Assembly (NCBI GenBank): GCA_020631155.1
Contig: JAHDHV010000016.1
Location: forward strand, 1-34,170
From: Bacteroidota bacterium
Lineage (GTDB): Bacteria; Bacteroidota; Bacteroidia; Chitinophagales; UBA2359
Length of the DNA: 34,170 nucleotides
Direction of reading: 5' to 3'
Shown: one piece after another, positions 6,996 to 34,170 of the stretch
Numbering within the stretch: the stretch's first letter is position 1
How the letters are laid out: each line of letters opens with the position of its first letter
The notes under the pieces: model-generated
Seen by the model: the letters and a program-made list of their open reading frames with translations, nothing else
Database searches by the model: none
Told to the model about the DNA's origin: nothing
Translations under genes and position numbers: made by a program

Positions 6996-7034
6996 ATGAG
7001 AAAAAAATATTTTTTATTTTATTTGTTATTAACT

Positions 7035-8165: not shown

Positions 8166-8649
8166 AGAGCGACACCCAAATATTCTTCCTGAATGTTATG
8201 CGGATACTTTGCTAGTGCATTTACTCGGTTTCAAATATCCCAATCATTGCCCTAGTATTGGTGCGGTAGCAAATACGATGAAAAAACAAAGCCTCGCTAT
8301 TGGAGTGATAGATCGAGATAAAAGGCAGCCCAAATATTTTAGTGAGTTTGATTTATTGGAAGAAAAACACGATTTGCAACTCAAAAAGCACCCTAACAAG
8401 CGACATTATTTGATTGTAGTTTCTCCTGCTTTTGAAAAATGGATATTTAAGGCAGCAGATTCTGTTGATGTCAAACCTGAAAAATATGGTTTTAAAACTT
8501 GGAAACGCTTTAAAAATATTTCTAAAAGTAGAACTGTAGATAGAAATCAGGATTTTAAGCAATTCATCAATGCCATCAAGCAAAAAAAATCACCACCTAC
8601 AGAGCAGATGATTGAGTGGATTCAGGATATTTTAGATAAAAACCTTTGA
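8158..8649 (+). CDS. Small (163 aa) partner protein of module 1 ATPase; possible minimal Toprim/RloB-like effector (DxD in LAIGVIDRDKRQ). Start overlaps the ATPase stop (ATGAGTAA); an alternative ATG lies at 8152
   Basis: Translationally coupled overlap with upstream ATPase; basic protein; DxD motif; no confident family assignment. Confidence 0.45.
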   Translation: MSKERHPNILPECYADTLLVHLLGFKYPNHCPSIGAVANTMKKQSLAIGVIDRDKRQPKYFSEFDLLEEKHDLQLKKHPNKRHYLIVVSPAFEKWIFKAADSVDVKPEKYGFKTWKRFKNISKSRTVDRNQDFKQFINAIKQKKSPPTEQMIEWIQDILDKNL

Positions 8650-10185: not shown

Positions 10186-10188
10186 ACT

Positions 10189-11599: not shown

Positions 11600-12241
11600 A
11601 TGTACAAAATATTCATCAACGACATACCCGTTTATCTAACCGATGACAAAAAGCAAAAACCGACTACCAAAGCAAAATCGGTATGGCGGATTAAATACAG
11701 CAAAAAAACGGATTTACTCGCCACCATTCAGCTATTGGAGCAGCAACCGCCGATAGATGAGGTGTATATTATTACTGATAAAGTAAGCAAACTGTACAAA
11801 GTGTTTGCAGCGCATTATAAGGGCATTGTAGCGGCAGGAGGCGTTGTGTTTAATGAAAATGGGGAGTTGCTATTAATTTATCGCCGCAAAAAATGGGACT
11901 TGCCAAAAGGAAAGGTAGAGGAAAACGAAACCATTGATATGGCGGCGGTGCGCGAGGTAGAGGAGGAGACGGGCTTGAAAAATGTGGAATTGGGAGAAGA
12001 AATTTACATTCCTAGCAATCAATTTCATACGACTTATCACACCTATTTCAACAGCAAAGGTAAACGCATCCTAAAAACAACTTATTGGTATTATATGTCC
12101 TGTAATGGCGAGGCGCAACACTTAAAACCGCAATTAGAGGAAGATATTGAGGAAGTTCGTTGGGTGAATCCTCAACATATCGCTTCTTATTTAAATAATA
12201 CGTTTTTGTCTATTGTGGATGTCGTAAAGGCGTGTCTGTAG
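11600..12241 (+). CDS. NUDIX hydrolase
   Basis: Nudix box GKVEENETIDMAAVREVEEETGL (GX5EX7REUXEEXGU). Confidence 0.85.
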   Translation: MYKIFINDIPVYLTDDKKQKPTTKAKSVWRIKYSKKTDLLATIQLLEQQPPIDEVYIITDKVSKLYKVFAAHYKGIVAAGGVVFNENGELLLIYRRKKWDLPKGKVEENETIDMAAVREVEEETGLKNVELGEEIYIPSNQFHTTYHTYFNSKGKRILKTTYWYYMSCNGEAQHLKPQLEEDIEEVRWVNPQHIASYLNNTFLSIVDVVKACL

Positions 12242-13353: not shown

Positions 13354-15639
13354 TTATTCAACTACAATTTTTTGAACATACTGCTTTCCTTTTTCCATAG
13401 TAATTTGACATAAATAAATGCCTTTAGACACATCTTTAATAGGAATAATACATTGTGTGAGGGCATTAGCAAAGCGTTTTTCCAATATTTTTTGTCCTTT
13501 TATATCAAACAACACTACTTGAACATCATCTTTGCTTAAAACGTTCCCGTCTGTTAATTCGATATGTAGCTGCGAATGAACAGGATTTGGATAACAAATG
13601 ATCTTGGGTTTAGGAGATGCTACTACTTGGGTATTTGTCATAAATGCTGCTTCATACCATCGCAAACCGCCTCTATAAGTGCCTACTACAATATCCCATT
13701 TACCATCATTATCTAAGTCTGCTATGGCAGGGCTAGTGCGAATACCTGTATTAATGCTGGAAAAAAAGTCGGGCGTTTCGGCGAATGAAGCATTTAAATC
13801 AACTTCTATATTTTCATAAAAAAATAATTTACCCTGTTCTGAACCTACAACAAGGGAATATTCGTTATCCGCCCATTCTATCAATTGCGGAATGGAGTAG
13901 CCTGTAGGAACACCTGTTATTCTTATATCTATCTCACCCCAAAAACCATTTATTTCTGTAAAAAGTGCAGCCGTAGTGGTGCCGGTATTTTCCCAGTAAT
14001 TGAGATTACCATTGCGTTCACCAATCACTAAGTCCAAGAGACCATCTCTATTTACATCTATCAATTGTGGCGCACTCGCCTTGCCAATGTCAATGCCTTG
14101 ATAACGCTCCTGTTGTAAAACAAACTCTGCATGACCTGTTGGACCAGGATTATTTTTAAAAAAGTGCAAAAAACCATCCTCATCACCAAGTAGCATGTCT
14201 TGATCGCCATCGCCGTCCAAGTCGCCAAAAGTCGGGCGAGCATTAGGCAAATCAACCTGTAATTGGTCGGAAATATTTGCCCAATCTCTACTGATTAGCT
14301 TAAAAGCAGGCGCGGTAGCTGTTCCTGTATTTTTAAATAAAGCCAAAGCAGGGAGGTAAGGAACATCTCCTTCTTCCTGCCAATAACCATAATTGCCTAC
14401 TACCAAATCCAGTAGACCATCACTATCGTAATCAAAAAAGACGGGATGCGCTGCTTTATCCACATCTATCATATTATCAATTAATAATACATCGCTTTGA
14501 AATTCAAATGTAAGATCAGGGCTTGTACCTTTATTTTTGTAATACCATACACAGTTGTAATTTTGCTGGATAATGGCACCAGGCAAGCGATTAGGTGAAA
14601 CTACTAAATCTTTTAAATTATCATTATTTACATCTACCAAAAAACTAGCAGGGAAGTTAGAGATTGAAATAGGTTTATCATAAGAAGGAAACTGGGTATC
14701 TTGTTCATTCATAAAGGCATAATCAGCCGTTCCATTATTTTTAACCATCAGAATATTGTTAGAGGCCAAATCGCCGAGCAACAATTCTTTGTCGCCATCG
14801 GTATCCAAATCTATAGCCAATAAGCTAGACCCAGCATGTGGATTATTTTTTTCATTTGAAAGTTTGGTCAATGTTGTATCACAACCCGTTTCCAAATCTA
14901 CAGACAGAAATTCAACAGGCATTCCTTCATAAAATTCGCCCCAGCATTTTGTATCTCTAACAAAAAGAAATTCACCACAGGTTTTGCCCTCTTCTTCCGC
15001 TTGATTTTTAAAATATTCTACATAACCACCCCCTTGCTGAAAAGTCAAAATATCCATATCACCATCACTATCCACATCTATCATAGCTGGTATATCAATA
15101 TTAGAAACAAAAATAAACTGCCGTTCTCCTTCTTCATTTTCAAATTGCAGCTTTTCATAAATCAACTCAAACGCCATTTGATCGCCCTCATATCGGCCTT
15201 TATATATACTACCACCATCATCATTATAGGTAAAAATATCTTTAATGCCATCGCAATTATAATCAACCAATAAAGCCCACTCTGATAAACTCGGAAAATT
15301 TTGCTGGTGTGCTGTGCTAAATTCGTAGTCTACTTGGTCGGTGCCGCCTTTGTGGAGGAAGGTAAAAATATGCTGGCCAGCTCGGTCAAATACAAAAAGG
15401 TCATCAATACCATCATTATTGAGGTCAACATTAGAAAATTGCGGATTATTCAGCCCGCCCATCCAGGGGAAAGCCAGTTTCCTATCCTCATCTACCGTTA
15501 CAGGAATATCAAAAACAGGATGAAATTCGCTTTGTGCAATAGCTGATTTATTGATGCCTATAAAAAGAACTAAAAATAATAATGGCATTACAATTGTATA
15601 GTACAGAAGTATTTTAAAATAAGTAATAATTTTATGCAT
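13354..15639 (-). CDS. Large secreted FG-GAP/VCBS-repeat protein with T9SS C-terminal sorting domain
   Basis: Repeated D-x-D/N-x-DG-x-xD-hh-hG motifs (DVNRDGLLDLVIG, DLDNDGKWDIVVG, DLDTDGDKELLLGD); C-terminal KIICYPNPVHSQLHIEL...KGIYLCQITMEKGKQYVQKIVVE typical of the T9SS type-A CTD; N-terminal signal/TM. Confidence 0.8.
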   Translation of the reverse strand: MHKIITYFKILLYYTIVMPLLFLVLFIGINKSAIAQSEFHPVFDIPVTVDEDRKLAFPWMGGLNNPQFSNVDLNNDGIDDLFVFDRAGQHIFTFLHKGGTDQVDYEFSTAHQQNFPSLSEWALLVDYNCDGIKDIFTYNDDGGSIYKGRYEGDQMAFELIYEKLQFENEEGERQFIFVSNIDIPAMIDVDSDGDMDILTFQQGGGYVEYFKNQAEEEGKTCGEFLFVRDTKCWGEFYEGMPVEFLSVDLETGCDTTLTKLSNEKNNPHAGSSLLAIDLDTDGDKELLLGDLASNNILMVKNNGTADYAFMNEQDTQFPSYDKPISISNFPASFLVDVNNDNLKDLVVSPNRLPGAIIQQNYNCVWYYKNKGTSPDLTFEFQSDVLLIDNMIDVDKAAHPVFFDYDSDGLLDLVVGNYGYWQEEGDVPYLPALALFKNTGTATAPAFKLISRDWANISDQLQVDLPNARPTFGDLDGDGDQDMLLGDEDGFLHFFKNNPGPTGHAEFVLQQERYQGIDIGKASAPQLIDVNRDGLLDLVIGERNGNLNYWENTGTTTAALFTEINGFWGEIDIRITGVPTGYSIPQLIEWADNEYSLVVGSEQGKLFFYENIEVDLNASFAETPDFFSSINTGIRTSPAIADLDNDGKWDIVVGTYRGGLRWYEAAFMTNTQVVASPKPKIICYPNPVHSQLHIELTDGNVLSKDDVQVVLFDIKGQKILEKRFANALTQCIIPIKDVSKGIYLCQITMEKGKQYVQKIVVE

Positions 15640-15676
15640 AAGCTTTGATGAATTGTTTTAAACTTGGAAAGTTTTT

Positions 15677-15709
15677 GGAGTTTGGAAGGTTACAAAGTTA
15701 CAAGGTTTT
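15677..15709 (-). promoter_or_regulatory. Copy c of conserved upstream motif (minus strand reads AAAACCTTGTAACTTTGTAACCTTCCAAACTCC), 38 nt upstream of the FG-GAP gene ATG
   Basis: Reverse complement of GGAGTTTGGAAGGTTACAAAGTTACAAGGTTTT. Confidence 0.3.
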
Positions 15710-16027
15710 AAAGTTTTTATTTTTTTTAATGAATTTTAAATCTAATGCTTTTTGTCTTGTTAGTCAAAAATATACAAAATTCAAAGAGGTTATTATTTTT
15801 TTTATCAATAAAATAAAAGGCGAAAAGTCAATTTAGCTCCAAACTCTAAAAAGTTTTAAGGTTAAAAAGTTGGAAAGTTTTATATTATTGGCTTTATATG
15901 ATTGGCGAAGTCCATATAATTTTTTTTAAAAAAAGTTAATTATCAATTACTTAGTCTAATCTCTGATTTCTAACAGCTATACCAAAAACAGTTTAGAATC
16001 GTAATTTTTTATAGCCAAAGCCTATAA

Positions 16028-16105
16028 GGTTTGGTTCGGCGCGAGGTGGAACCTCGCCCCTGTAATCTAGCAGGTGTGAGGCTTTGCCTCGCTCCGAACC
16101 AAATT
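16028..16105. other. GC-rich structured element. Outer 16/17-bp stem TTTGGTTCGGCGCGAGG / CCTCGCTCCGAACCAAA encloses two similar hairpins GCGAGG-TGGAA-CCTCGC and GTGAGG-CTTTG-CCTCGC; candidate small structured RNA or REP-like element
   Basis: Nested inverted repeats; GC content far above the surrounding 1.15-kb AT-rich intergenic region. Confidence 0.3.
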
Positions 16106-16183
16106 AGTAGCCTCTGGCTACACTGATAAAAACAAATAAAAAATTTAACAACTTTCGCTTTTATCCTGTTTTTGGTATAACAG

Positions 16184-16263
16184 CTAAAAATCTAAAAATC
16201 TAAAAATCTAAAAATCTAAAAATCTAAAAATCTAAAAATCCAAAAGTCCAAAAGTCCAAAAAT
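16184..16263. repeat. Tandem 8-bp repeats (CTAAAAAT x6, CCAAAAGT x2, CCAAAAAT) followed by a leader-like TCGAACTTCTAATTGCTAACCTCT
   Basis: Direct reading; same unit family as the 2111-2414 array. Confidence 0.85.
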
Positions 16264-16789
16264 CGAACTTCTAATTGCTAACCTCTATTCATTATGACGA
16301 TTGCAAACTATAAAAAAGATGGCTAAGTAAACCAATGTAATCAATTTTTGGTGTTTTTGATGTAATACATCCGCCAATTAGTTAAGAAATACACAAAGAA
16401 CTTAGCAGAAATAAGTAAATAGTGACTTTACTATGATAAATGTAGACTAAAATATAAGCGAAATAGTGTTAGCTTTTAGAAAGCTTGTAGAAGCATTTTA
16501 TGAATTGTTTTTACTGGAAAGATGTGAAGTTTTTTATATTTTAAGTTGATGATATTTTTTTTATTTAAAAGTTTGATAATCAAGTTAAAACCCAATTAAA
16601 AAGCTAATATCTGATTGCTGTTTACTGAAAAGCTAAAAGAAATATTGTTTTTTAGAAAAATTATAAGCCAATTCAGCATCTAAATTTGAATTTTACTTAT
16701 TTTTGTGACCATTTTGAGACATTTGTATTCCATTAAACCATTATATAGGCGCAGTCCTCAAGCCCCTACCAATCATTAACACAAGCTTT

Positions 16790-19594
16790 ATGCAGATAAA
16801 AAACCTACTGTTTTACCTTCTTTTATTTGGAAGTCTATGCGCGACTAATACGTGGGCGCAAGATGTAAAAGTCAACTTGCAAAAAGATAAGGTAGATACC
16901 GAGAGTAAACGACCTACCGCACCCAAAGATACGAATAAAACTTCCTCAGATTTAGGTAGTAAAATATTACAAAGTATTCAACAAAAAAAGGCTGCCACAA
17001 TCACTACAGAAACAGCGGCAAAGCCTACTCCTACACCTGCCGAAGCTAAAAGACCTACAGATACACAAGCAACTGATACCGCTACTCAACCAAAGACAAC
17101 AAAAACGGAAACGACAACAGAAACTAAAACAGATAGCGATTCTGTGACAGATTCGGATAGTGATTCTAATGACGGTGCCGATACTGTTGCAACAGCCGAT
17201 ACCACAGGAACTACGCCCGAACCTTCGGCGATGGATTCGATGTCTAAAGCGGTGGAGGATGTGGTAAAAACGGGCTTAAAGAAGACAAAACGAAAAATTA
17301 CACATACCATTAATGCTATTACAGCTAACAAACCTGTTTTAGCACCGCCTGCGCCACCTGCCGAGCAAACCAAAATTCTAAAATTTGATGTTCAGGTACT
17401 TCGCGAGCTGGCACCAACAGAAGCAGTTGCCGTTGATGGTAAGCCTAAAAAGGACAAAGAAAAAGAGGAAGAAACTGCTGCCATAGATAGTACAAAACAA
17501 GAAACTAAGGAAGAGACACCAAAAATTACCAAGCTTGAAATTACTGCTTTGGATGCTAGAGGTAGACGGAATACGGCTGTTAATGGAACTTATAATTTCG
17601 CAATTGATAAAGGTGACCCACAATCTTTCGAGTTTGTAGACGGACGTGCAACAAGTGAACTGGACGCTGTTCCGCAAACCTTATTTGTAGAGCATTTTAA
17701 TGGAATAGAACGCTTAAACGATTTTTACCGTGTTAATGCCGATTATGACGATCCGCAAACCAGTATCATTCCTCAGTGGATGGGACTCATTCCGCCTTTG
17801 GTTGCCATTATTTTAGCACTATTATTTCGGGAAGTTTTATTTTCCCTGTTCATTGGTGTATTCATTGGCGTGTTGACTTTGGCAGGCTTTAGTTGGGAAA
17901 ATGTCATTCCTAGCTTTTTCAAAGTAATAGATAAATACATTATTGGTGCATTGAAAAACCCTGATCATTTATCCGTCATTGTATTTTCTTTATTAATTGG
18001 CGGTATGGTGGCCATTATTTCGAGAAATGGGGGTATGGCAGGAGTAGTCAAGGGCTTGTCGTTCTTTGCGCGAGGTCCCCGAAGTTCGCAATTTGTGACT
18101 TGGCTCATGGGTATTGCCATCTTTTTCGATGACTATGCCAACACCTTGATCGTGGGAAATACCATGCGCTCTATTACGGATAAATATCGCGTTTCTCGTG
18201 AAAAATTAGCTTATATTGTAGATAGTACGGCGGCTCCCGTTGCTGCCATTGCTTTGATTACCACTTGGATCGGTGCGGAGTTGGGCTATATTGGCGATGC
18301 TAGTAAAACGCTAGGCATTAACGAAGAACCTTATTCCATTTTCCTAAACTCCTTGCAATATTCTTTTTATCCTGTATTGACTTTATTTTTTATTTTAATG
18401 TTAATTTTATTTAAAAGAGATTATGGGTCAATGTGGGATGCGGAAGTGCGCGCAAGAGCGACAGGAAAACTAGCGGATATGGGCGTGCGTAAGGAAGAGG
18501 AGCTAAAAGATGCAATGGAAGAATTGCAACCTGTAGAGGGAATCGGGCATTATGCATTTAACGCTATTTTACCGATTTTAACCGTTATTGGCGTTACGAT
18601 GTGGGGTTTATACAGCACAGGTTATGATGCTGCCGTTATGGAAGACCCTACCTTAACCACCTTCAACAAATTATCTACCATTGTTGGGAACTCAGATTCC
18701 TATAAAGCCTTGATGTGGAGTTCGATTTCAGGTGTATTGATGGCCGTCTTTTTAAGTGTATTGGGACGATTTTTATCCTTGCGAGGCGCGATGGAAAGTA
18801 TGGTAATGGGGATTAAAACCATGATGCCTGCCATCGTTATTTTGGTATTGGCGTGGGCATTGGCGCAAATCACCAAAGATTTACGCACCGCCGATTATCT
18901 GACTACCTTATTAGAAGGCAATCTCGACCCCAAACTAATGCCGACCATCACCTTTTTACTATCTGGATTCATTGCCTTTGCCACAGGTTCTAGTTGGAGT
19001 ACAATGGCGATTTTATACCCTATTTTACTGCCAACCACTTGGACCATTTGCATGACCGCAGGCTTTCCAGTAGACGTAACCATGCCGATTTTTTACAGCG
19101 TAACCGCCAGCGTTTTAGCAGGTTCGGTCTTCGGCGATCACTGTTCTCCAATTTCCGATACCACCATTTTAAGCTCCTTAGCCACAGGCTGTAACCACAT
19201 TGACCACGTAAGTACACAGCTACATTATGCGATTACTGTAGGAATTGTGAGTGTAGGCATGGGCTTATTAGCAGTATATACTGACTGGCCGTTCTGGTCG
19301 TATTTTGCTATTGGAGCGAGTTGTTTATTACTCATCGTACTAATTGCAGGGCGCACCGTTCACGATGCCGAATACTACCAACCACAAGTAGCCGCAGCAG
19401 GAGTAGGAGCAGAAGAAAACACTGGTATTGCTGCCGATAATGCAGATGCCACAGATAAAAGTGCCGATACGGGCGAAATTCCACCAAGCAGCAAAGTGGA
19501 GGTTTTTCCAACCATCTTACCCCCACCATCAGAAGAAGACATAAAAAAAGCTAGTGAAGGCAATGATGACGATGAAATTTTTGATCCTAAGTAA
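16790..19594 (+). CDS. NhaC-family Na+/H+ antiporter fused to a ~330-aa N-terminal signal-peptide-bearing, T/D/S/P/K-rich low-complexity extension and a short acidic C-terminal tail
   Basis: Signal peptide MQIKNLLFYLLLFGSLCATNTWA; low-complexity region with DSDS and TETTTETKT repeats; C-terminal 600 aa shows NhaC-like TM core (FFDDYANTLIVGNTMRSITDKY, DSTAAPVAAIALITTWIG). Confidence 0.7.
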   Translation: MQIKNLLFYLLLFGSLCATNTWAQDVKVNLQKDKVDTESKRPTAPKDTNKTSSDLGSKILQSIQQKKAATITTETAAKPTPTPAEAKRPTDTQATDTATQPKTTKTETTTETKTDSDSVTDSDSDSNDGADTVATADTTGTTPEPSAMDSMSKAVEDVVKTGLKKTKRKITHTINAITANKPVLAPPAPPAEQTKILKFDVQVLRELAPTEAVAVDGKPKKDKEKEEETAAIDSTKQETKEETPKITKLEITALDARGRRNTAVNGTYNFAIDKGDPQSFEFVDGRATSELDAVPQTLFVEHFNGIERLNDFYRVNADYDDPQTSIIPQWMGLIPPLVAIILALLFREVLFSLFIGVFIGVLTLAGFSWENVIPSFFKVIDKYIIGALKNPDHLSVIVFSLLIGGMVAIISRNGGMAGVVKGLSFFARGPRSSQFVTWLMGIAIFFDDYANTLIVGNTMRSITDKYRVSREKLAYIVDSTAAPVAAIALITTWIGAELGYIGDASKTLGINEEPYSIFLNSLQYSFYPVLTLFFILMLILFKRDYGSMWDAEVRARATGKLADMGVRKEEELKDAMEELQPVEGIGHYAFNAILPILTVIGVTMWGLYSTGYDAAVMEDPTLTTFNKLSTIVGNSDSYKALMWSSISGVLMAVFLSVLGRFLSLRGAMESMVMGIKTMMPAIVILVLAWALAQITKDLRTADYLTTLLEGNLDPKLMPTITFLLSGFIAFATGSSWSTMAILYPILLPTTWTICMTAGFPVDVTMPIFYSVTASVLAGSVFGDHCSPISDTTILSSLATGCNHIDHVSTQLHYAITVGIVSVGMGLLAVYTDWPFWSYFAIGASCLLLIVLIAGRTVHDAEYYQPQVAAAGVGAEENTGIAADNADATDKSADTGEIPPSSKVEVFPTILPPPSEEDIKKASEGNDDDEIFDPK

Positions 19595-24220: not shown

Positions 24221-24268
24221 ACAACTCACAACTCACAACTCACAACTCACAACTCACAACTCACAACC
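24221..24268. repeat. Heptanucleotide tandem repeat (ACAACTC) x ~6.5 immediately upstream of the folC ATG
   Basis: Direct reading. Confidence 0.85.
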
Positions 24269-24273
24269 AATTC

Positions 24274-25578: not shown

Positions 25579-25583
25579 AATAA

Positions 25584-25635
25584 TGTTGTTTTTGTTTCTA
25601 AAAATCTGTATTTTTGTAGAAAAAAAGAAATAAAT
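25584..25635. repeat. 52-bp direct repeat, copy 1 (TGTTGTTTTTGTTTCTAAAAATCTGTATTTTTGTAGAAAAAAAGAAATAAAT), abuts the abiEi ATG
   Basis: Identical to 27034-27085. Confidence 0.9.
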
Positions 25636-26263
25636 GAGCTTTTTTGAATTTCAAAATACCTTTGTTAAGCATCCTGTTATTTCAATATTAGAGATTAAAA
25701 AGTACTTTTCAAATTTTGATAATAATGCTTTAACTCGATGGCAAAAAAAAGGATATATAAGAAAAATTAGAAATGGTTTTTATCGTCTAAGCAAACCAAA
25801 GATTACTACTGTAGAAGAACTATTTTTTACTGCAAATCGCATTTATTGGCCTTCTTACATTTCGTTACATTCTGCTTTGCGATGGTATGATTTTATTCCA
25901 GAGGAAGTATTTTCAATAACCTCTGTTACTACTAAAAAAACACAGCAGTTTGAAACAGTAGATGGCACGTTTAAGTATCAAAATTTTAAAAAGAATCTGT
26001 TTTTTGGGTATAAACTAGAAAAGAATAATAAAGGATATTACTTTAAAATGGCAACACCAGAAAAAGCATTACTAGATTTTTTGTATTTGAATCCCCATCT
26101 TAAAACAGAAGATGATATTTTTGAATTGCGATTAAATGCTTTTGAAATTCAGGAGAAAGTAAATCTAAAAGTTTTAGATGCATATTTGTCACTTTTTGAT
26201 TCTAAAGCCTTAAATAAAAGAGTAAGTAATTTTAAAAAAATATTATATAATGAAAACTATTGA
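25634..26263 (+). CDS. abiEi: AbiEi-family antitoxin / transcriptional regulator (type IV TA)
   Basis: N-terminal wHTH GYIRKIRNGFYRL; core PSYISLHSALRWYDFIPEEVFSITSVTT typical of AbiEi; overlaps downstream abiEii by 14 nt. Confidence 0.8.
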   Translation: MSFFEFQNTFVKHPVISILEIKKYFSNFDNNALTRWQKKGYIRKIRNGFYRLSKPKITTVEELFFTANRIYWPSYISLHSALRWYDFIPEEVFSITSVTTKKTQQFETVDGTFKYQNFKKNLFFGYKLEKNNKGYYFKMATPEKALLDFLYLNPHLKTEDDIFELRLNAFEIQEKVNLKVLDAYLSLFDSKALNKRVSNFKKILYNENY

Positions 26264-27026
26264 TGAAATTTGTTCCTTTTATCCTTCTGCTTTGCATAAT
26301 CGGGGAGCTTTTTTGTTGAGGGAGTATTTACAGTATAAGATTTTAGAGATCATATTTCAAAGTGACTATGCCTTGAAATTTTCATTTTTAGGTGGAACTT
26401 GTTTACGTATTATCCATAATACTCAGCGATTTTCAGAAGATTTAGACTTTGATAATTTTGATTTATCAGAGAAAGATTTTGAATTAGTTTCAGAGGTAAT
26501 TAAAAATGGGTTAGAAGAGCAGGGCTTTCGCGTTGAAATGCGTAATGTCTTTCGAGCAGCATATCATTGTTATATTCGCTTTCCTGGATTATTATATAAA
26601 ATGGGGCTAAGTGGACATAAAGAGGCTAAAATTTTAATTAACTTAGATACAGAACCACAAAACTTTGTTTTTCAGTCTGAAACACATTTTTTAAATAAAT
26701 TTGATGTTTTTACCTCAATATATACGACTCCATTAGACCTATTATTAAGCCAAAAAATTCTAGCAATTACGCAAAGAAAGCGACCTAAAGGACGGGATTT
26801 TTACGATGTCGTTTTTTTGAGTGGGCATACAAAACCAAATTATGGTTTTTTAACACAACGTTTGTCTATTACTAATGCAGATGAACTAAGAATACATATG
26901 GAAGCTATTTGCAAAAAAAGGAATTTTCCACAACTAACTAAAGATGTTGAACCATTTTTATTTAATATAAAGGATCGGCAACGCATTTTATTATTTCCTG
27001 AATATCTTAAAACTATAAAATGGTAA
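26250..27026 (+). CDS. abiEii: AbiEii/AbiGii-family nucleotidyltransferase toxin (DUF1814)
   Basis: Motifs SFLGGTCLRI and RFSEDLDFDN characteristic of AbiEii nucleotidyltransferases. Confidence 0.85.
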   Translation: MKTIDEICSFYPSALHNRGAFLLREYLQYKILEIIFQSDYALKFSFLGGTCLRIIHNTQRFSEDLDFDNFDLSEKDFELVSEVIKNGLEEQGFRVEMRNVFRAAYHCYIRFPGLLYKMGLSGHKEAKILINLDTEPQNFVFQSETHFLNKFDVFTSIYTTPLDLLLSQKILAITQRKRPKGRDFYDVVFLSGHTKPNYGFLTQRLSITNADELRIHMEAICKKRNFPQLTKDVEPFLFNIKDRQRILLFPEYLKTIKW

Positions 27027-27033
27027 TCAATTG

Positions 27034-27085
27034 TGTTGTTTTTGTTTCTAAAAATCTGTATTTTTGTAGAAAAAAAGAAATAAAT
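27034..27085. repeat. 52-bp direct repeat, copy 2, identical to 25584-25635
   Basis: Exact match. Confidence 0.9.
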
Positions 27086-27108
27086 TAACTTTTAAAGACA
27101 AAGTATTT

Positions 27109-27429
27109 CTAATTATCCCGCCTAGGAAATGCCAACTTCATTAAAATTCCAATAAGCCCACCTGTAATAGCCCCTGCCAAAATGGTATGCGACCAAGTGC
27201 CAGAGGAGGCAGCAACAATAATAAAAAATAACGCACCAATCACCACACTAAGCCCAATAATACCACCACAACCAACAAAGAACCCATGATTCAGGTCTTT
27301 ATGAAACCAGCCGATAAAGGTGCCCATTAAGGTAGCAATGATAACGTTTAACCAATTCCCGTCAAATAGAAATAGTTGGATAAGTCCTAAAATAATGCCT
27401 GCAATGAAACCGCCGATGATGTCTCTCAA
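27109..27429 (-). CDS. GlsB/YeaQ/YmgE-family small membrane protein (transglycosylase-associated)
   Basis: Gly-rich TM helices IIGGFIAGIILGLI...GGIIGLSVVIGALFF...GAITGGLIGIL typical of the family. Confidence 0.7.
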   Translation of the reverse strand: MRDIIGGFIAGIILGLIQLFLFDGNWLNVIIATLMGTFIGWFHKDLNHGFFVGCGGIIGLSVVIGALFFIIVAASSGTWSHTILAGAITGGLIGILMKLAFPRRDN

Positions 27430-27515: not shown

Positions 27516-27851
27516 TTAATCAAGTGTTGCCAATAACCCCTCTAATGACTGTTCCCAGGGTTCATCAGTCATGAGTGTTTGTACTTCCTTGAATGTGATT
27601 GATTGATTGCCTTGTTCTTCAAATATTTGTTCTTTTGATATGGCTTTGCGAATGTTTATTTTTCCCAAGTGAAATTTATCCATCTCTTGTGGGCTAGGCG
27701 TTGTATTTTCCAAAGCTAATTGAACTGTTGTATAAATAGCTTGGAGTTGTTGATAATCTGTTATTTTTGTTATCAAGCTTATCAGGTCAAGTTTGATGTC
27801 ATTGAGTGAGTTTTCATTTTGTTTTTTTAGTTTTCCTTCAAGGAGTTTCAT
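27516..27851 (-). CDS. Hypothetical 111-aa protein, third gene of the UPF0175/DUF3368 operon (overlaps the PIN gene by 14 nt)
   Basis: Clean ORF, operon position; no recognisable motif. Confidence 0.4.
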   Translation of the reverse strand: MKLLEGKLKKQNENSLNDIKLDLISLITKITDYQQLQAIYTTVQLALENTTPSPQEMDKFHLGKINIRKAISKEQIFEEQGNQSITFKEVQTLMTDEPWEQSLEGLLATLD

Positions 27852-28326
27852 TTGCCATATTTAAAATGCGAATTTTAAGCTGGGGTTTGATATAGAACCC
27901 AACTTGTTCGAGTTCTGTCAAGATGAGTTTCACTTCTGGAATCAACTTTTGTGTCTTAGCATCAATCAATAAGCCTAACAAACCAATGGTGTTTAGCCCA
28001 ATTTCTCTAGCCTTTTTTGTTCCAATACGTTCATCAATCAATAACAGATTTGCATTTAATTCTTTGGCTAAAGTAATTGCTTCTGCTTCGCCTCTATCTA
28101 GCACTTTCAGTAAGTTTTGAACAGAAACATTGTTTTTAGGCTGCTGTATTCTTAACCAACTAGCTTGATTGTAACTTGTTAAGTCAATATTGAAATGAGC
28201 TAGTGCTAGGATTTCATTATGAACAAAAGGTGGGACTATCACCTCATTAAACAATTGACCTAGCAATTCAAACCGTCCAATTTGAATCAAGTTGCTGATA
28301 GGAGAGGTATCACTTACAACAATCAT
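27838..28326 (-). CDS. DUF3368-family PIN-like putative toxin
   Basis: N-terminus MIVVSDTSPISNLIQIGRFELL and LLIDERIG typical of DUF3368/COG2405 PIN-like proteins; 4-nt overlap with the upstream UPF0175 gene. Confidence 0.7.
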   Translation of the reverse strand: MIVVSDTSPISNLIQIGRFELLGQLFNEVIVPPFVHNEILALAHFNIDLTSYNQASWLRIQQPKNNVSVQNLLKVLDRGEAEAITLAKELNANLLLIDERIGTKKAREIGLNTIGLLGLLIDAKTQKLIPEVKLILTELEQVGFYIKPQLKIRILNMANETP

Positions 28327-28568
28327 TGTTTTCTTAATTTAGCTAAAGTTTTCATATCTTCTTCAAAATCTTCAATGTCATAATGAATAGGGATTTTACA
28401 TTTTGCCAACTCCCTTTGAAATTGTATTTGATGAATACCTGCAAGTTGACTGCCTTGACCTAGTGTTATTTTTTCTTCTTTAAAAAGTTCAATTGCCAAT
28501 TTCAACATAAGTGCCTCTATGCTTATACCAATCTGTGCTAGAAGTTGGTCTGGAATTTCAATTGTCAT
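28323..28568 (-). CDS. UPF0175-family putative antitoxin
   Basis: MTIEIPDQLLAQIG...LMLKLAIELFKEEKITLGQGSQLAG matches the UPF0175 pattern; paired with DUF3368. Confidence 0.7.
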   Translation of the reverse strand: MTIEIPDQLLAQIGISIEALMLKLAIELFKEEKITLGQGSQLAGIHQIQFQRELAKCKIPIHYDIEDFEEDMKTLAKLRKQ

Positions 28569-28665: not shown

Positions 28666-28718
28666 AATTGGACAAGCCCTAAAATAATGCCTGTGATACA
28701 TCCGCCGATGATGTCTCT
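28666..28718 (-). pseudogene. Diverged (~82% identity) duplicate of the first ~17 codons of the GlsB-family gene (start ATG changed to ATA), 1.24 kb from the intact copy
   Basis: Alignment of 28666-28718 with 27374-27426; reverse-complement translation I-RDIIGGCITGIILGLVQ vs MRDIIGGFIAGIILGLIQ. Confidence 0.55.
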
Positions 28719-28745: not shown

Positions 28746-31328
28746 TTATTCGTTGAGCTTTTTTACCAATGAAAACAATCTAGAGGTGTCTACTATTACT
28801 TCATTTAATTGTTCTTTACTATATTTAGCTACTCTTGAATGAAAAGTTTCATTTCGTTCATCTATTGTGTACTCTTTTAAATTCTTTACCACTTGCTTTA
28901 TAATTAACTTAATTTCGTTAGTTTTGGAATTACCAAAATAGTTTAAAATAAAGTTGTGTTCTAACCACAGCCAATTTAAAACTTTTTTCATTTCACCAAG
29001 GCTAGAATAGTATATGAGATGTAAATCATTTTTTAAAGCTCTATTTCTATTATATTCCCATTTAGATACTAACTTTGAGTTTCTTTTATTTACAAAATCT
29101 TCAAATGTTATGTCATTTTCAAAAAGTTCAATTACAAAAATTCTTAATTGCTCTTCCGAGTTTATTAAGTGAGTCGTTATTTTTTGTATCATATTTTCTT
29201 GTTCTTCTTCAGCAATCATTTTCTTTGCTTTTGCATAAACACTTTTGCAGTTTTCATCATTAAGGGCAATCCTCTTATGATCTTCAAATGTTATAAGTAT
29301 TCTTTCCCAATCACGCTCACTTGCATGGATTTGTAATAAAACTCTTAATGCATTTTTTTCATACTCAATATCTGTGTCTTTATCTGAGTAGGTTAATATT
29401 TTTTTTGCTATTTTCTTTGCTTTTTCATAATCTCTATCTTTACTTGAGGTATAGTAGTTCATGTCCTTTACAAAATAATTGATGGAATTTTTTATCTTAT
29501 TTTCATAGAGTCTTATTTTACTATTAATCTTATCATTAGAAAAAATTTTCAGATATTTAGTATGAACTTTCTTTTTTTCTTTTAAATATTTTATTTTATT
29601 TTCAATACTGTCATCTTCCTTAACTAGTTTATCTACTAATTGTAAATAAATATTTTTTTCCTTATGCACAAGTAAAGTCAATTCAATACTTTTCCATTCC
29701 CGTAAAAATTCTATTTTATCAGCAATTCGTTCATTATTATATTGACTAATTATTTTTTTTGCTTCCTCCCTTAGTATTTCAAATCTTTTTAAATATTTAT
29801 ATATGTTAATGTACTGTTTTGCAATTGAGGTGTCATATGATGTTTCTTTTAAAGCGTTTATTGCTATGTTAATTGCAACTTGTCTTCTTTTGGGACGCTG
29901 TTCCATTTTTATCCAATCAAACCATATGTTTTTATTAGTTGGATTGAGCTCTGTAGCTCTACGAAAATTTTCAGATGCTTTAGAATACAAATAAAGAACA
30001 GTTTGTACTTTTGCTAACTCATGATATAATCTATAATCTTCAATTCTTTCAATTGCATTTATTAGTGAATTTTCAGCTCCCTTATAATCTAAGTCATTTA
30101 AATAGATTTTTAATCTTTCAAGAAATAAGTCAACTTTATCTTTAGAAATCTCCTTATTTAGCATCGCATTTTTAAGTCCAAGTACTTTGTTCTCTATTTC
30201 GTCGTAGTCTATATAGTGCTGTTTAGCAAAATTTATAGCCATCTTACTTATTATTATTTCTCCATTAGCACTTTCAGCAATCAACTGATTTGCATAGAGT
30301 TCATCAATAATTTGCTCCAGTTTGCCAGAATCAAAGTTACTATAGTTCATTAGAGTTTCTATTGTGATAGGTTCATCTTTTTTACTCCGATTTCTATGTA
30401 ATGAAGTTATTATTTTAAATATCAACTGTGTATCTGTGTTCAATGATTCATACATATCCTTGAAACTAAATAGGATTATTTCAGACATTCTTTGTTTTTT
30501 CTCTTTAGGCGTTTTAGCATCTTCAATACTAGGATAACCCTCAAGTTCTTGAAAAATTTGCCCTCTAGACTTACCTCTGATTAGTTGTCCAATTATAAAT
30601 TCAATAGCTAGTGGAATTTTTCCAACTCGTTCTATTAACTTTAAGTTCATCTTTTCGGAAGAATTGATGATTTCAAGAATTCTCTTTTCTCTATTATTTT
30701 CTGCTAACCATATTAACATATCATAGGCTTTTGTCAGAGAAAGACCTTGTATTTCAATAGGAAAGTCTGCTATCTTTTTTCTTTTTCGTGATGTAGTTAA
30801 CACTTTTAAATATCTATTATTTCGGCTATATTTATTGAATTTTCTGAGAAAAGTGAAAAAATCGGGATTATTTATCGTCTCCAAGTTATCTAATACAAAA
30901 AAGATTTTTTCATCTTTTACAATTTCTTCAAAAAAACTCTTTCGTTCTAGAAAAGGATGTTTAAGGAATTCGGGGAATCCAGCTAATCTAATAGTTTCAT
31001 CAATTAATATTTCAATTGGCTTATCTTTGAATTCATTTTTTATATTTATTATTTGATTATCTGTTGCAAAGGCATCAAAAACAGTATTCTTCGCTGTAAC
31101 CCAAACAAGGTAACTAAAATCACCACTTTTAAGCAAATATTCTTTACAGAAATAATAGGCTAGTGCTGTTTTGCCAATTCCACCAATTCCATCTATAGAG
31201 GCTATATATGTGCCACCTTCAATTAATTCATCTTTGATTTTTGAAATTGTGTTTTCACGACCAAAAAATTTCATATATGGTTGATTTGGTAAATTGTGAG
31301 TTGTTTTTGTATATGTTAGCTCTTTCAT
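28746..31328 (-). CDS. STAND-class NTPase (NB-ARC-like P-loop at residues ~45-55) followed by ~600 aa of TPR/helical repeats; no recognisable N- or C-terminal effector domain
   Basis: P-loop IDGIGGIGKTALAYYF; Walker B FFVLDNLE; repetitive helical remainder with frequent Y/W/K-rich ~34-aa periodicity. Confidence 0.7.
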   Translation of the reverse strand: MKELTYTKTTHNLPNQPYMKFFGRENTISKIKDELIEGGTYIASIDGIGGIGKTALAYYFCKEYLLKSGDFSYLVWVTAKNTVFDAFATDNQIINIKNEFKDKPIEILIDETIRLAGFPEFLKHPFLERKSFFEEIVKDEKIFFVLDNLETINNPDFFTFLRKFNKYSRNNRYLKVLTTSRKRKKIADFPIEIQGLSLTKAYDMLIWLAENNREKRILEIINSSEKMNLKLIERVGKIPLAIEFIIGQLIRGKSRGQIFQELEGYPSIEDAKTPKEKKQRMSEIILFSFKDMYESLNTDTQLIFKIITSLHRNRSKKDEPITIETLMNYSNFDSGKLEQIIDELYANQLIAESANGEIIISKMAINFAKQHYIDYDEIENKVLGLKNAMLNKEISKDKVDLFLERLKIYLNDLDYKGAENSLINAIERIEDYRLYHELAKVQTVLYLYSKASENFRRATELNPTNKNIWFDWIKMEQRPKRRQVAINIAINALKETSYDTSIAKQYINIYKYLKRFEILREEAKKIISQYNNERIADKIEFLREWKSIELTLLVHKEKNIYLQLVDKLVKEDDSIENKIKYLKEKKKVHTKYLKIFSNDKINSKIRLYENKIKNSINYFVKDMNYYTSSKDRDYEKAKKIAKKILTYSDKDTDIEYEKNALRVLLQIHASERDWERILITFEDHKRIALNDENCKSVYAKAKKMIAEEEQENMIQKITTHLINSEEQLRIFVIELFENDITFEDFVNKRNSKLVSKWEYNRNRALKNDLHLIYYSSLGEMKKVLNWLWLEHNFILNYFGNSKTNEIKLIIKQVVKNLKEYTIDERNETFHSRVAKYSKEQLNEVIVDTSRLFSLVKKLNE

Positions 31329-31520
31329 TTTTTTATGTTTTGTAAATTATAGGACACTAAAGTGTTCAAGCTGTCTAAAATCTAGAACTTTTTCTTCCTT
31401 AATTCATCAACTTAAAAGCACTTCTAAGATTATATATATACTGCAAATATAGTCAAGCTTAACAACTCCACCAAATAATCACAACATTTATTAAATCTTT
31501 AGCAATTAATCCACAAAAAC

Positions 31521-31592: not shown

Positions 31593-33116
31593 CTAGTAAT
31601 AACGGTTTTCCCCGAAAAGTTATTACTGATAGTCAGCGAGTTATGCATTTTCTGCATGAAAAAAGGGTGTTTTATCCGTTTTTTGAAATAAATATATAAC
31701 AGATGACACTTTCATAGTAATGGATTATTTCCATTTAAAGAAGTAGCCACTAATAAATTTTCTAGCCAGTGGTCTCTATATCTAAAGCCATTGAGTTGCT
31801 CAAAACGCGACTTCACTCCCCCTTTAGCTTTAATGGTTTGGCTACTATAATGGCTAAAATTAATTAAAAGGGCATGAGCTCGCATGATGTCATTGGCACT
31901 CTGTATGTCACCATGAAAGTGCTACATAGCACTTAATTTTTTTTTTGTGTTTTCATCAATCTATCTAACATATTAGAGGTTCTACGACAATCTATTTGGT
32001 CATAATAAGTCATATATTCCTCTTTTTTAAGACAGAGTTTCAGGGCTGCTTTTTTGAGTGGATTATCAGGCAGGTGTAGGAGTATCCATTCTTCTAAGCG
32101 TCTCATTTGTTGGGCAAAACTTTGTTTATTTTCTGCCTTATAAGCTGTCCAAGCCTTTTTTAGTAGTACAGTCGCATAAGGTTGTAATTGTTTAGTCGCT
32201 CTTTTGTCTATATTGAGTATGCCATGTAAAAAACAACGAATCAGTGTGGTGTTCTCAAATAAGTGTTCCATTACTTTAAGGGTAGATTTAAAGCCATCTG
32301 TATTGATAGTCAATGGTTTATAATCATCTGCTATGCACTTAACTTCTTGTTTAAAGACTTCATAAGCATTCGTTAAGTGCTCAAAGTCAATGGATGGACT
32401 AGCGGCTGTACCCAAAAAACAATCTCCACCTACGGTGGTGGCTAAATATATTTTTTGCCCATTTAGCTTGTCATGGTGTTCATCTACAATAAGATGCTCT
32501 GGAAGCAAAGACCGCCTTTTGATGCTTGTTCCAACAATGTTTTTTCATGCCCAAAAGCACTCCGCTCGATACCAGAACATGGCATCTTTACCCAACAAAG
32601 TGACTACAGCATGATAAGGCACATTATAACGTCGTAGAAACAAACCTTCTGCAACAAAGCTAGTGCTTGCACGTAAATATGGAAACATAAAACAAGGATG
32701 TAAGAGGTATTCTGCTTGATTAGATAGTAGCTGAATTCTACGTCTAGGCAAAGCTTGTTTTTGACTTGTTTTACTCCAACCATAAAAACGATAGCCTTGT
32801 TGGATAGCAGTTGGAAATAACTCTGGAAAACAGCTAATTAAGTCATCTATATACTTTCTAAATTCAAAACGATTATGTAAAACCTCTGCATAAGAGCGCA
32901 TGTCGATAGGTAATATAATTGTTTTTGAACCCCTGTTGCTTAAAAGATAATTTTGCATATGACAAAGATGCTGATTATCAAGCAATTAACCTAATTAAAA
33001 CAAAAATAGAATGTATATGTTTTCCAAGATCCGATAAACTTGATTTTTTACCCCCTTTTTTTTCGTAAATTACTGATTATCAAGCTTATAAAATCGGGGA
33101 AATCCGTTACAACTAG
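31593..33116 (-). mobile_element. Degenerate insertion sequence (~1524 bp): imperfect ~27-bp terminal inverted repeats (CTAGTAATAACGGTTTTCCCCGAAAAG vs reverse complement CTAGTTGTAACGGATTTCCCCGATTTT), perfect 8-bp target-site duplication TCATTTTC (31585-31592 and 33117-33124); DDE transposase gene interrupted
   Basis: TIR and TSD read directly; internal ORFs 32545-32985 and 31933-32508 plus further C-terminal fragments down to ~31700 are co-linear on the minus strand but separated by a frameshift and stops. Confidence 0.7.
31700..32985 (-). pseudogene. Transposase pseudogene (frameshifted / stop-interrupted; family not assignable by eye)
   Basis: Two ORF fragments and downstream stop-containing continuation (e.g. 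HYSSQTIKAKGGVKSRFEQLNGFRYRDHW) in different frames. Confidence 0.55.
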
Positions 33117-33151: not shown

Positions 33152-34170
33152 TCAATCCACCGTCACCCGTATGCCCTCAGAGTGACTGCTAAATTCGGGG
33201 GCGTACATGCATTGAATACTGGTGATACCGTTGGAGAAGTCTCCTTTTTGGGCTACTCTTAATGGGTATTCAAATACGTAGGTGCCTTTGTTTAGGTAGC
33301 TGATGAAAAAGTTGGTTGCTGCGTCTTTGGTTGTTTCGTAATAGCCTAAGCCGTCTTGATAGCGGTAGCGCGAAATGACGTTAATCGGTTCGAAGCCTGC
33401 TGCGCGCATGTCTTTCATATGTACGTATTCCATGGCTCGGTCTACACGTAATTCGATGCGAACTTTTACTTTGTCACCTACTTTTAAGGTGCCTTTATCG
33501 CTGATGGCGTTCAATTTTTGACCGCTTTTGCTGTCTTCTACCAAAAACAATTCTTTTTTGATGCTTAAAGGCGTTTCGGCGGCGGTGATTTTGTCCAACT
33601 GCTCGAAGTACTGCCAGTAAACGGCTCCCCAGCTTACGCCTTCGTCTTTTTTCTCCACCGTAATATTGCCCATATCGGCGGTGATGTCATCGGCAGACCA
33701 AGCGGTTTTAAAGTAGCCTGTGCCTGCTTCTGCTTTGGCTTCGGGCAAATTGTTGGGGTCAATTTTTTGGCTGCCAATTTGGATGTCTACCAATGCGTCT
33801 TGTGATAGGAAATCAGTGCCGCGCATCAACAGGGCATAACAAGCTTCTGCCGTTGCTTTGGTGGTTTTCCAATCTTGTGTTTGCTTTTGTTTGAGCAACC
33901 AAATTTTCATGGCTTCCACCGATTCTTTATCACCTGCCACCTCGTCAAAGGCTTCTATCAGTAGGGCTTGCGTTTCTATCGGTGCTTGATACCAGAACCA
34001 AGCTCTTTGTTCTCCTTTAAAATACATGCCCATTTCTTCATTATGTGTAGCGTTCTGTTTCAAGGATTTTAGAATCTCATTGGCAACTTTGGAATCTTTA
34101 TTAGTAAAGCGGTGCAGCGCGAGGGCAATCATGCCTTGTGTGTATTTATTGTTATTTAACCAATAAGTTT
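33152..34170 (-). CDS. Alpha-2-macroglobulin family protein, C-terminal part (gene continues beyond the window edge)
   Basis: Frame stays open to the window end; C-terminal sequence ...GDFSNGITSIQCMYAPEFSSHSEGIRVTVD typical of bacterial A2M receptor-binding-like C-terminus. Confidence 0.65.
   Translation of the reverse strand, partial: TYWLNNNKYTQGMIALALHRFTNKDSKVANEILKSLKQNATHNEEMGMYFKGEQRAWFWYQAPIETQALLIEAFDEVAGDKESVEAMKIWLLKQKQTQDWKTTKATAEACYALLMRGTDFLSQDALVDIQIGSQKIDPNNLPEAKAEAGTGYFKTAWSADDITADMGNITVEKKDEGVSWGAVYWQYFEQLDKITAAETPLSIKKELFLVEDSKSGQKLNAISDKGTLKVGDKVKVRIELRVDRAMEYVHMKDMRAAGFEPINVISRYRYQDGLGYYETTKDAATNFFISYLNKGTYVFEYPLRVAQKGDFSNGITSIQCMYAPEFSSHSEGIRVTVD

Follow-up and report, generated by a model that had tools for sequence, protein, structure and literature searches.

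A STAND NTPase with a predicted, divergent HEPN ribonuclease domain at its C-terminus, encoded in an accessory island of a Bacteroidota bacterium

The DNA that was analyzed, referred to below as the window, is a stretch of 34,170 nucleotides from a Bacteroidota bacterium (GenBank assembly GCA_020631155.1, contig JAHDHV010000016.1). On its minus strand lies a gene for an 860-aa protein, whose features were assigned as follows:

28746-31328, minus strand: STAND-HEPN gene, 860 aa, complete in the ORF list (stop codon TAA at 28746-28748)
31429-31456, minus strand: promoter-like site TTGACT-16-TATAAT (11/12 in a consensus scan), ~100 nt 5' of the STAND ATG
30744-31271, minus strand: nucleotide-binding domain (NBD) of the NB-ARC module, residues 20-195
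31167-31190, minus strand: P-loop GIGGIGKT, residues 47-54
30879-30902, minus strand: Walker B FFVLDNLE, residues 143-150
30786-30800, minus strand: sensor-1/RNBS-B-like LTTSR, residues 177-181
30213-30737, minus strand: ARC1 helical domain and winged-helix region, residues 198-372, from Pfam and AF2 secondary structure
30603-30623, minus strand: GLPL-like GKIPLAI within ARC1, residues 236-242
29229-30206, minus strand: TPR or TPR-like alpha-solenoid, residues 375-700, the presumed sensor
28749-29216, minus strand: Swt1/Abi2-like HEPN domain, residues 705-860, predicted RNase effector
29142-29156, minus strand: EEQLR in the first HEPN helix, with invariant E725 and R729
28833-28856, minus strand: Rx4H motif RNETFHSR (R825, N826, H830, R832)

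An in-frame stop lies six codons 5' of the ATG, so that an N-terminal extension of the protein is impossible. Given this stop and an NBD that begins at about residue 20, the claim of the first-pass annotation that there is no N-terminal effector was upheld. The promoter-like site weakly suggests that the STAND gene may be its own transcription unit; the number of sites returned by the scan near the gene equaled the shuffle expectation, and the consensus employed was that of sigma-70, from which Bacteroidota promoters differ. Some 95 full-length homologs (~857 aa) match the protein at 31-52% identity. A contig profile scan with the family alignment was dominated by GGIGKTAL, a generic P-loop peptide, and recovered only distant NB-ARC proteins, and tblastn searches gave only distant NB-ARC matches in plasmids and zero matches in phages. 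The taxonomic clues for the family are indirect, in that a T9SS domain is encoded both in the window and at one homolog locus (L087). One family fragment is labelled Omnitrophota, and the GC content of the hosts spans 30% to 59%.

On the basis of its motifs, all of which are intact, the protein was assigned to the STAND NTPases of the AP-ATPase/NB-ARC clade. It matches the Pfam NB-ARC model over residues 25-285 at 39.1 bits (cutoff 23.5); homologs also match this model, and in an alignment of 64 of them the key residues of the P-loop, Walker B, TTSR and GxP motifs are invariant, while G236, P239 and L240 are conserved in the ARC1 region. Outside of TPR proteins the best structural matches were plant resistosome NB-ARC chains, and the fold of the NOD resembles that of solved NB-ARC proteins. 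For the repeats, the family profile matched consensus-TPR proteins over residues ~398-552 (E=4e-20 to 7e-36), the AF2 model has helical hairpins across residues 375-690, and the helical array extends through residues ~560-700; the full-length model has a pTM of 0.51, and its inter-domain geometry is uncertain. The open reading frame, the P-loop, the Pfam score and the TPR profile thus all bear out the initial description of an 860-aa STAND protein with an NB-ARC-like P-loop and TPRs.

The protein had initially been described as effector-less, with a C-terminal ~250 aa lacking any recognizable catalytic motif. Residues ~560-700 belong to the repeat array, but residues 705-860 carry RNETFH and are best described as a separate, divergent HEPN domain and predicted ribonuclease, so that the effector-less label no longer applies. 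R825 and H830 are invariant in all 39 aligned tails and the N is kept in >90% of them. An Rx4H motif was found within the final 80 aa of 86 of the 89 full-length members, the remaining three being two proteins in which the domain has been swapped for EAD11 and one degenerate copy. Likewise, E725 and R729 are invariant in 64 sequences and align with the FE..LR block of HEPN_Swt1 domains, in a tail whose average pairwise identity outside the conserved motif residues is only 40%. In hhalign comparisons the tail matched P0143/P0147 at 96% probability (E=3.7e-9, 119 columns) and the N-terminal HEPN_Swt1 domains of the P0096 clade at E=5.4e-5 (127 columns), against E values of 0.09-0.46 for the controls (reversed template, other domains); P0143 and P0147 themselves score 35.1 and 21.6 bits on Pfam HEPN_Swt1. 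Similarly, the tail profile, run by hmmsearch against 1.84 billion proteins, recovered P0143, P0147, P0149 and P0150 (E 7e-5 to 1e-3), in which Pfam HEPN_Swt1 falls on the same residues, in two of them above the gathering cutoff, and all four align in register with the STAND tail through RxxxxH. The Pfam HEPN_Swt1 model (PF18731) did not match the 860-aa protein or the tail consensus directly, and among the 39 member tails its best match was one member at E=0.017, with the gathering threshold not reached; the tail is therefore classed as a divergent relative of HEPN_Swt1 and not as a Pfam-defined member. The first-pass annotation had also raised the idea of a novel C-terminal effector, of which the position stands and the novelty does not, given the relationship to Swt1-like HEPN RNase domains.

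Other searches with the tail were less informative. A homolog search with the tail alignment returned one fragment only, missed the parent family itself and was superseded by the exhaustive hmmsearch. Foldseek comparison with the PDB gave only generic or designed helical bundles, all at E>0.2. When PDB sequences were searched with the tail profile, only QacR was matched, weakly (E 0.016-0.14) and over a helical stretch outside the motif, and these matches were judged spurious.

The C-terminal module has been exchanged among relatives, being HEPN in the protein described here and the adaptor EAD11 in two others, with an N-terminal HEPN_Swt1 in the sister clade. Homology with P0092 and P0094 ends at residues 708-715, beyond which those proteins have EAD11 in place of HEPN, and in the P0096 clade the order is HEPN_Swt1-NB-ARC-TPR. 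The 860-aa protein has no EAD, and within the family EAD11 was found only in P0092 and P0094; trans effectors are therefore implied for that sub-branch, and an unannotated 425-aa gene lies 8 nt downstream of P0094, on a contig of ERR4592245.

The neighbors of the STAND gene in the window include AbiEi/AbiEii, a UPF0175+DUF3368 pair (PDC-S70 in PADLOC), a split IS256-like transposase and flanking duplications, and the window as a whole also carries AbiL-like and PDC-M55 genes; the TA-like operons, IS and duplications are present as the first-pass annotation described them, in keeping with a defense or accessory island. A gap of 177 nt separates the STAND gene from the UPF0175/DUF3368 pair, which follows it on the same strand and is bracketed by a 51-nt duplication of the 5'-terminal part of a gene for a membrane protein. 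On account of this duplication the cassette looks like a separate, independent insertion between the STAND gene and the small membrane-protein gene. The product of the latter, a 106-aa membrane protein encoded directly downstream in the inferred pre-insertion order, was considered as a partner of the STAND protein and rejected, as its homologs are absent near other members. No model of PADLOC-DB v2 matched the 860-aa protein at E<=0.1.

At nine independent homolog loci, no homologs of UPF0175, DUF3368, orf111, TM106 or AbiE were present within 8 kb of the STAND gene, and the proposed co-occurrence with DUF3368/UPF0175 was accordingly not seen. The neighbors differ among the nine loci: at L087 they form a type I R-M/RloB island, at L088 there is a type II R-M pair, and at L090 the surrounding element encodes a TrwC relaxase and integrases. 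There is no conserved gene partner for STAND-HEPN. Defense contexts were found at only about half of the loci, and four homologs lie between housekeeping genes. At all nine, the GC content of the STAND gene is 3-21 points below that of its flanks. Both composition and context carry signs of horizontal acquisition.

Based on this domain content, we consider it likely that the protein is a self-contained single-polypeptide STAND in which a NOD (NBD-HD-WHD), a TPR sensor array and a C-terminal Swt1/Abi2-like HEPN RNase are combined in an immune sensor-killer mechanism, and that UPF0175/DUF3368, AbiE and the IS elements reside in the accessory island independently of it. Because its tail is a predicted, divergent HEPN RNase domain, the protein would be an ordinary, uncharacterized single-gene candidate immune sensor-killer. 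By analogy with characterized Avs, NLR and HEPN proteins, the resting STAND-HEPN would be an autoinhibited monomer, and binding of a trigger, most likely a protein of a phage or other invader, to the TPR array would release the NOD. NTP-dependent oligomerization would then allow the C-terminal HEPN domains to meet as dimers with composite active sites, and the active RNase may cut cellular and/or invader RNA, resulting in growth arrest or abortive infection. A further reading, which we hold only tentatively and regard as unlikely, is that the ~860-aa family represents a compact defense-STAND lineage of inverted topology (NOD-TPR-output) whose C-terminus serves as a plug-in socket for HEPN or EAD11, with an activation unlike the clustering of N-terminal effectors in Avs. 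In one form of that reading, the trigger would clamp the TPR solenoid so that the adjacent HEPN is released or dimerized directly, and the NOD would serve mainly as a timer or lock.

The sensor-killer interpretation has to be weighed against several others. A non-immune role, in which STAND-HEPN is a housekeeping or stress RNA-processing switch, for instance one that triggers decay of particular transcripts on sensing a metabolite or host protein, is improbable. In its favor are the roughly half of homolog loci that are flanked by housekeeping genes only, the absence of a PADLOC match and the interleaving of defense and non-defense clades in the STAND superfamily (PMC13581612). However, the conserved neighborhood expected of a pathway component was not found, and the gene has a consistently foreign GC signature, a sporadic placement that includes R-M islands and an integrative element, an effector position that can be swapped to EAD11 and an occasional decayed copy, all of which are typical of conflict systems; moreover, Swt1-like HEPN-STAND fusions have been read as defense or conflict proteins (PMC3710099). 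It is also improbable, and more so than a non-immune role, that the tail is non-catalytic, that is, a helical cap or a dimerization or RNA/ligand-binding HEPN-like domain in which Rx4H is structural. The invariance of R825 and H830, along with that of the neighboring N826 and R832 and of E725 and R729 in the first helix, argues against this. So does the fact that in relatives the position of the domain is taken by an effector-associated adaptor. HEPN domains that are inactive are those that have lost Rx4-6H.

Two proposals that shift the output away from the tail fared worst. An effector-less sensor that depends for killing in trans on a partner such as the UPF0175/DUF3368 (PIN-like) operon, as initially suggested, is now largely refuted and very improbable. 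The proximity and shared strand of that TA-like pair are what would be expected of a partner, and the EAD11 ends of P0092 and P0094, the latter with its closely spaced 425-aa gene, fit such an arrangement, but the 860-aa protein has its own conserved HEPN module, neither this pair nor any other of the neighbors sought recurs at the nine other loci, the cassette appears to have been inserted independently, and PADLOC scores UPF0175/DUF3368 as a candidate system of its own, PDC-S70. The domain content effectively refutes a STAND transcription regulator comparable to MalT, AfsR or GutR. SARP/AfsR-like regulators do share the NB-ARC+TPR architecture, and one distant match, P0118, bears the name of a LuxR-family activator in its source record; against this, Pfam and NCBIfam revealed no DNA-binding domain, whether HTH, BTAD or another, in the protein or its full-length relatives, which for the HTH agrees with what had been noted by eye, both termini are accounted for by the NBD and the HEPN, and no conserved target operon is present at the homolog loci.

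The proposed sensor-killer resembles several known systems in part. Swt1-like HEPN domains fused to a STAND-ATPase and TPRs have been tabulated in Npun_F6454, MED222_16016 and Desac_1927 (Anantharaman et al. 2013, Biol Direct 8:15, Table 1); STAND-TPR fusions appear among the Swt1-like HEPN entries, and HEPN-STAND proteins with the HEPN at the N-terminus are described as well (PMC3710099). The bacterial clade of this kind recovered here (P0096-P0113) has the same three blocks, an intact Rx4H, NODs homologous to those of the 860-aa family (25-32% identity, E~1e-24) and, like that family, stand-alone genes in variable or mobile contexts. It differs in its canonical effector-NOD-sensor order, whereas the HEPN of the 860-aa protein follows the TPRs at the extreme C-terminus and, unlike that of the clade, has diverged past the Pfam model. 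Avs proteins (Gao et al. 2022; Nature 2026, PMC13581612) likewise combine a STAND, a TPR-like sensor and an effector that degrades nucleic acids in a single large polypeptide, are horizontally mobile and often reside in defense islands, and presumably share the logic of trigger binding, oligomerization and effector activation. However, their effectors are N-terminal, the characterized examples cited carry a Cap4 DNA nuclease rather than a predicted HEPN RNase (PMC13581612), and typical Avs proteins are far larger than 860 aa. A C-terminal effector beyond tandem repeats is found in bNACHT proteins, for which HEPN is among the RNase effectors listed (Kibby et al., bioRxiv 2022.07.19.500537), but their NTPase is NACHT and not NB-ARC/AP-ATPase. 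The AbiF/AbiD (Abi_2) abortive-infection proteins (PDB 8vz6), at ~9% sequence identity, are stand-alone HEPN proteins of ~300 aa that are regulated by a non-coding RNA and have no NTPase switch. HEPN RNases work via dimeric composite sites, and in RNase L/Ire1 (KEN-type HEPN) and RAZR the HEPN is inactive until ligand-driven dimerization or assembly (PMC13017515), the principle that we propose for the 860-aa protein; those proteins sense via ankyrin and pseudokinase domains, or via a zinc finger around phage rings, and lack a STAND NTPase.

The conceptual gain is small in that fusions of STAND with HEPN were described in 2013 and bacterial NLR-like proteins with C-terminal effectors in 2022. 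Nevertheless, a divergent HEPN can lie concealed in a STAND that looks effector-less: single-sequence Pfam scans miss it, and an alignment of the family, profile-profile comparison and a predicted structure are needed to reveal it. A large survey of STAND proteins, which distinguished 589 clades, 198 of them of defense, scores effectors by domain-database profile matches (PMC13581612). Since Pfam/CDD annotation misses the tail HEPN, such clades may be scored as effector-less or non-defense in surveys of this type. If our interpretation is correct, the 860-aa protein would be a compact single-gene sensor-RNase that is directly testable for phage defense, and a model for how a STAND switch controls an effector located beyond the sensor repeats.

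The STAND gene occupies 28746-31328 (-), exactly where the first-pass annotation had placed it, and encodes an 860-aa product from an ATG start (ORF list); an N-terminal extension is ruled out because an in-frame stop lies six codons 5' of this ATG. The earlier description of the protein as an NB-ARC NTPase with a TPR array was also correct, with Pfam NB-ARC matching residues 25-285 at 39.1 bits (curated cutoff 23.5) and the P-loop GIGGIGKT at residues 47-54. No PADLOC model matched the protein, and NCBIfam gave only a sub-threshold P-loop match. It belongs to a coherent family of ~95 full-length proteins (~857 aa, 31-52% identity), which come mostly from short metagenomic contigs. The NB-ARC switch is intact: across a 64-sequence family alignment, the Walker A residues G47-K53, the Walker B D147-N-L-E150, T178-T-S-R181 with the RNBS-B/sensor-1 arginine typical of AP-ATPases, and P239 of the GLPL-like GKIPLAI were all invariant. 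The TPR array was more variable than the nucleotide-binding, helical and winged-helix module (NOD), with pairwise identities of 0.42 versus 0.58.

The protein had initially been regarded as effector-less, which we now consider an artefact of reading by eye, since its C-terminal tail (residues 705-860) is in all probability a HEPN domain and, as such, a predicted RNase effector. The DERNETFHSR of the tail, seen by eye, is an Rx4H motif. In the family alignment E725 and R729 were invariant and R825 and H830 at least 90% conserved, and in an alignment of 39 tails all four were invariant, with N826 >90% conserved. The Rx4H lies within the last 80 residues in 86 of the 89 full-length members, mostly as ERNE[ST]FHSR; two of the other three have another C-terminal module and one copy lacks both the R and the H. 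More distant relatives (P0096-P0113, 25-32% identical to the STAND protein in the NOD) have a Pfam-certified N-terminal HEPN_Swt1, followed by NB-ARC and then TPRs, and in profile-profile comparison the tail aligned with that N-terminal domain in register over 127 columns (E=5.4e-5), sharing the blocks E..LR, IxY[ST]xLxxL[KR] and RNxxxH[SN]R, versus just 10-22 columns (E=0.09-0.46) for the controls, a reversed template and three helical segments from elsewhere in the same protein. When the tail profile was run exhaustively with HMMER against 1.84 billion representative proteins, the domain proved almost confined to the STAND family; four proteins with unrelated architectures (P0143, P0147, P0149 and P0150; library-wide E 7e-5 to 1e-3) were recovered as well. 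Pfam HEPN_Swt1 matches all four over the residues hit by the tail profile, and two exceed its gathering cutoff of 27.5 bits (35.1 and 32.5 bits). The alignment of P0143 and P0147 to the tail profile runs through the catalytic RxxxxH, and hhalign of the tail against these two gave 96% probability and E=3.7e-9.

Because there was no direct Pfam HEPN_Swt1 match for this tail, the tail consensus or 38 of the 39 member tails, and Foldseek against the PDB was uninformative, we call the tail a divergent Swt1/Abi2-group HEPN and not a member of the Pfam-defined PF18731. That AbiF was best by structure and Swt1-like best by sequence is coherent, as the 2013 HEPN classification puts Abi2/AbiF/AbiD and Swt1-like in one group (PMC3710099 Table 1). 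Occasional family members have degenerate tails: P0061 (929 aa) has KNNETFDYR where ERNETFHSR is expected, and P0139 (886 aa) has an alignable tail that lacks the catalytic R and H. Both appear to be either inactivated copies or paralogs with a decoy/regulatory role.

In two homologs, P0092 and P0094, identity to the STAND protein (37-39% from residue ~11) ends at 708-715, beyond which an effector-associated adaptor domain, Pfam EAD11 (35-36 bits), takes the place of HEPN. Since the exchange falls at the HEPN boundary, the C-terminus would be the output position in this lineage, with the conserved HEPN catalytic signature sitting at this modular end. Most members are thus predicted to carry their own RNase, and a few to end in an adaptor through which an effector would act in trans. 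On the P0094 contig (Logan ERR4592245), a 425-aa protein (gene at 2614-3891) without a Pfam match is encoded from 8 nt past the STAND stop codon, and an overlapping cupin gene (3888-4361) comes next; the 425-aa protein is a plausible candidate for an EAD11-coupled trans effector or partner. Another related clade of distant NB-ARC relatives (P0100, P0111, P0114 and P0115; 862-887 aa) has, N-terminal to the homologous NB-ARC and TPRs, a ~290-aa domain that Pfam does not assign, possibly a further effector type on the same NOD lineage.

The neighbours of the gene (AbiE pair, UPF0175/DUF3368 pair and IS) were as first described, as judged by Pfam, PADLOC and NCBIfam. Features of the window are as follows:

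6996-8649 (+), AbiLi-like/OLD-type ABC ATPase with a small overlapping 165-aa ORF (PADLOC AbiLi 1.5e-22; also GajA/AriA-like)
8893-11349 (+), PDC-M55 A and B pair (PADLOC 2.7e-65 for A, 3.7e-21 for B)
11600-12241, weak match to PDC-S07
25579-25643 and 27029-27093, 65-nt direct repeat, 94% identical, bracketing the AbiEi/AbiEii pair
25634-27026, AbiEi/AbiEii (PADLOC AbiEi 1e-65, AbiEii 3e-97)
27109-27429 (-), 106-aa multi-pass membrane-protein gene
27376-27426 and 28668-28718, 51-nt direct repeat, 86% identical, bracketing the UPF0175/DUF3368/111-aa block (27516-28568)
27838-28568, UPF0175 and DUF3368 pair (PADLOC candidate system PDC-S70)
31933-32508 and 32545-32985 (-), IS256/Mutator-like transposase in two ORFs (NCBIfam IS256 E=1.7e-7, downstream piece only)

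The window is rich in defence genes (AbiL-like ATPase, PDC-M55 A/B, AbiE and PDC-S70), the AbiLi-like ATPase and PDC-M55 A/B being further candidate modules, and it encodes a T9SS sorting domain that points to a Bacteroidota host. The split transposase, directly upstream of the STAND gene, appears to be a decayed IS. The AbiEi start codon lies inside the left copy of the 65-nt repeat, which looks like an insertion or duplication footprint of the type IV TA/abortive-infection cassette. Separately, ~7 tandem copies of ACAACTC at 24221-24269, which either overlap the annotated folC 5' end or lie just 5' of it, could be slippage-prone; the true FolC start is probably an internal Met, because the NCBIfam match starts at residue ~49.

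It had been proposed that an effector could be supplied in trans by the adjacent PIN/DUF3368 operon, whose block includes an overlapping 111-aa ORF with no family match. The copy of the 51-nt repeat adjoining the STAND stop codon (28668-28718) encodes IRDIIGGCITGIILGLVQ... up to a stop, a shortened second copy of the 106-aa membrane protein's N-terminus, and the cassette therefore seems to have landed between the STAND gene and the 106-aa gene as a separate insertion. Moreover, tblastn with UPF0175, DUF3368, the 111-aa ORF, the 106-aa membrane protein, AbiEi, AbiEii and the IS fragments found no homologs within ±8 kb of the gene at any of nine independent homolog loci. Separate insertion and this lack of co-occurrence argue against a functional STAND-PIN coupling, and we consider the proposal very unlikely.

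The flanking genes were different at every one of these nine loci, with housekeeping genes on both sides in four. Elsewhere the STAND homolog lies within a type I R-M cluster that includes RloB/AAA_21 genes (L087), adjoins R.HinP1I and a methyltransferase (L088), is beside an HsdR fragment (L089), or belongs to an element that also encodes a TrwC relaxase and two integrases (L090). At all nine loci the STAND gene was more AT-rich than its flanks, by 3-21 GC points, in host backgrounds spanning 30% to 59% GC; close relatives were absent from sequenced plasmids and phages (tblastn). No partner gene is conserved across these loci, and the STAND gene appears to be stand-alone and horizontally mobile. 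In L088 the STAND gene has an alpha-2-macroglobulin-like gene (14129-18610; Pfam MG2, A2M and bMG10) within a few kb, and a 326-aa ORF of the window, 33152-34132 (-), resembles by eye the C-terminal part of such a protein; if it is one, related Bacteroidota might share an integration hotspot, or the resemblance in context could be coincidental.

A MalT/AfsR-type regulator was rejected because the protein has no DNA-binding output, and it differs from Avs in having neither an N-terminal effector nor a match to a known defence profile. The family also departs from the canonical STAND order of N-terminal effector, NTPase and C-terminal sensor (PMC13581612) in being NOD-TPR-HEPN, though with precedent: bacterial NACHT proteins have HEPN as one of their RNase effectors, and some of their effectors are at the extreme C-terminus past the repeats, probably in a similar spatial position (bioRxiv 2022.07.19.500537). 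A 2013 catalogue already lists fusions of Swt1-like HEPN with STAND-ATPase and TPRs, and also describes N-terminal HEPN-STAND proteins (PMC3710099).

Based on knowledge of STAND/NLR/Avs proteins (PMC13581612) and of HEPN RNases, whose composite active site requires dimerisation (PMC13017515), binding of a trigger by the TPR array would relieve autoinhibition, NTP-dependent oligomerisation would juxtapose the HEPN domains, and the activated RNase would degrade RNA, causing growth arrest or abortive infection. An immune or conflict role is reasonably probable, and overall we consider it likely that this is a self-contained STAND NTPase with a C-terminal HEPN, a candidate immune sensor-killer. 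It is an uncharacterised, putative STAND-HEPN conflict protein, STAND-HEPN proteins themselves being already known, and its mildly unusual topology, together with the clean HEPN/EAD11 swap, makes it a reasonable, not exceptional, candidate for experiments.
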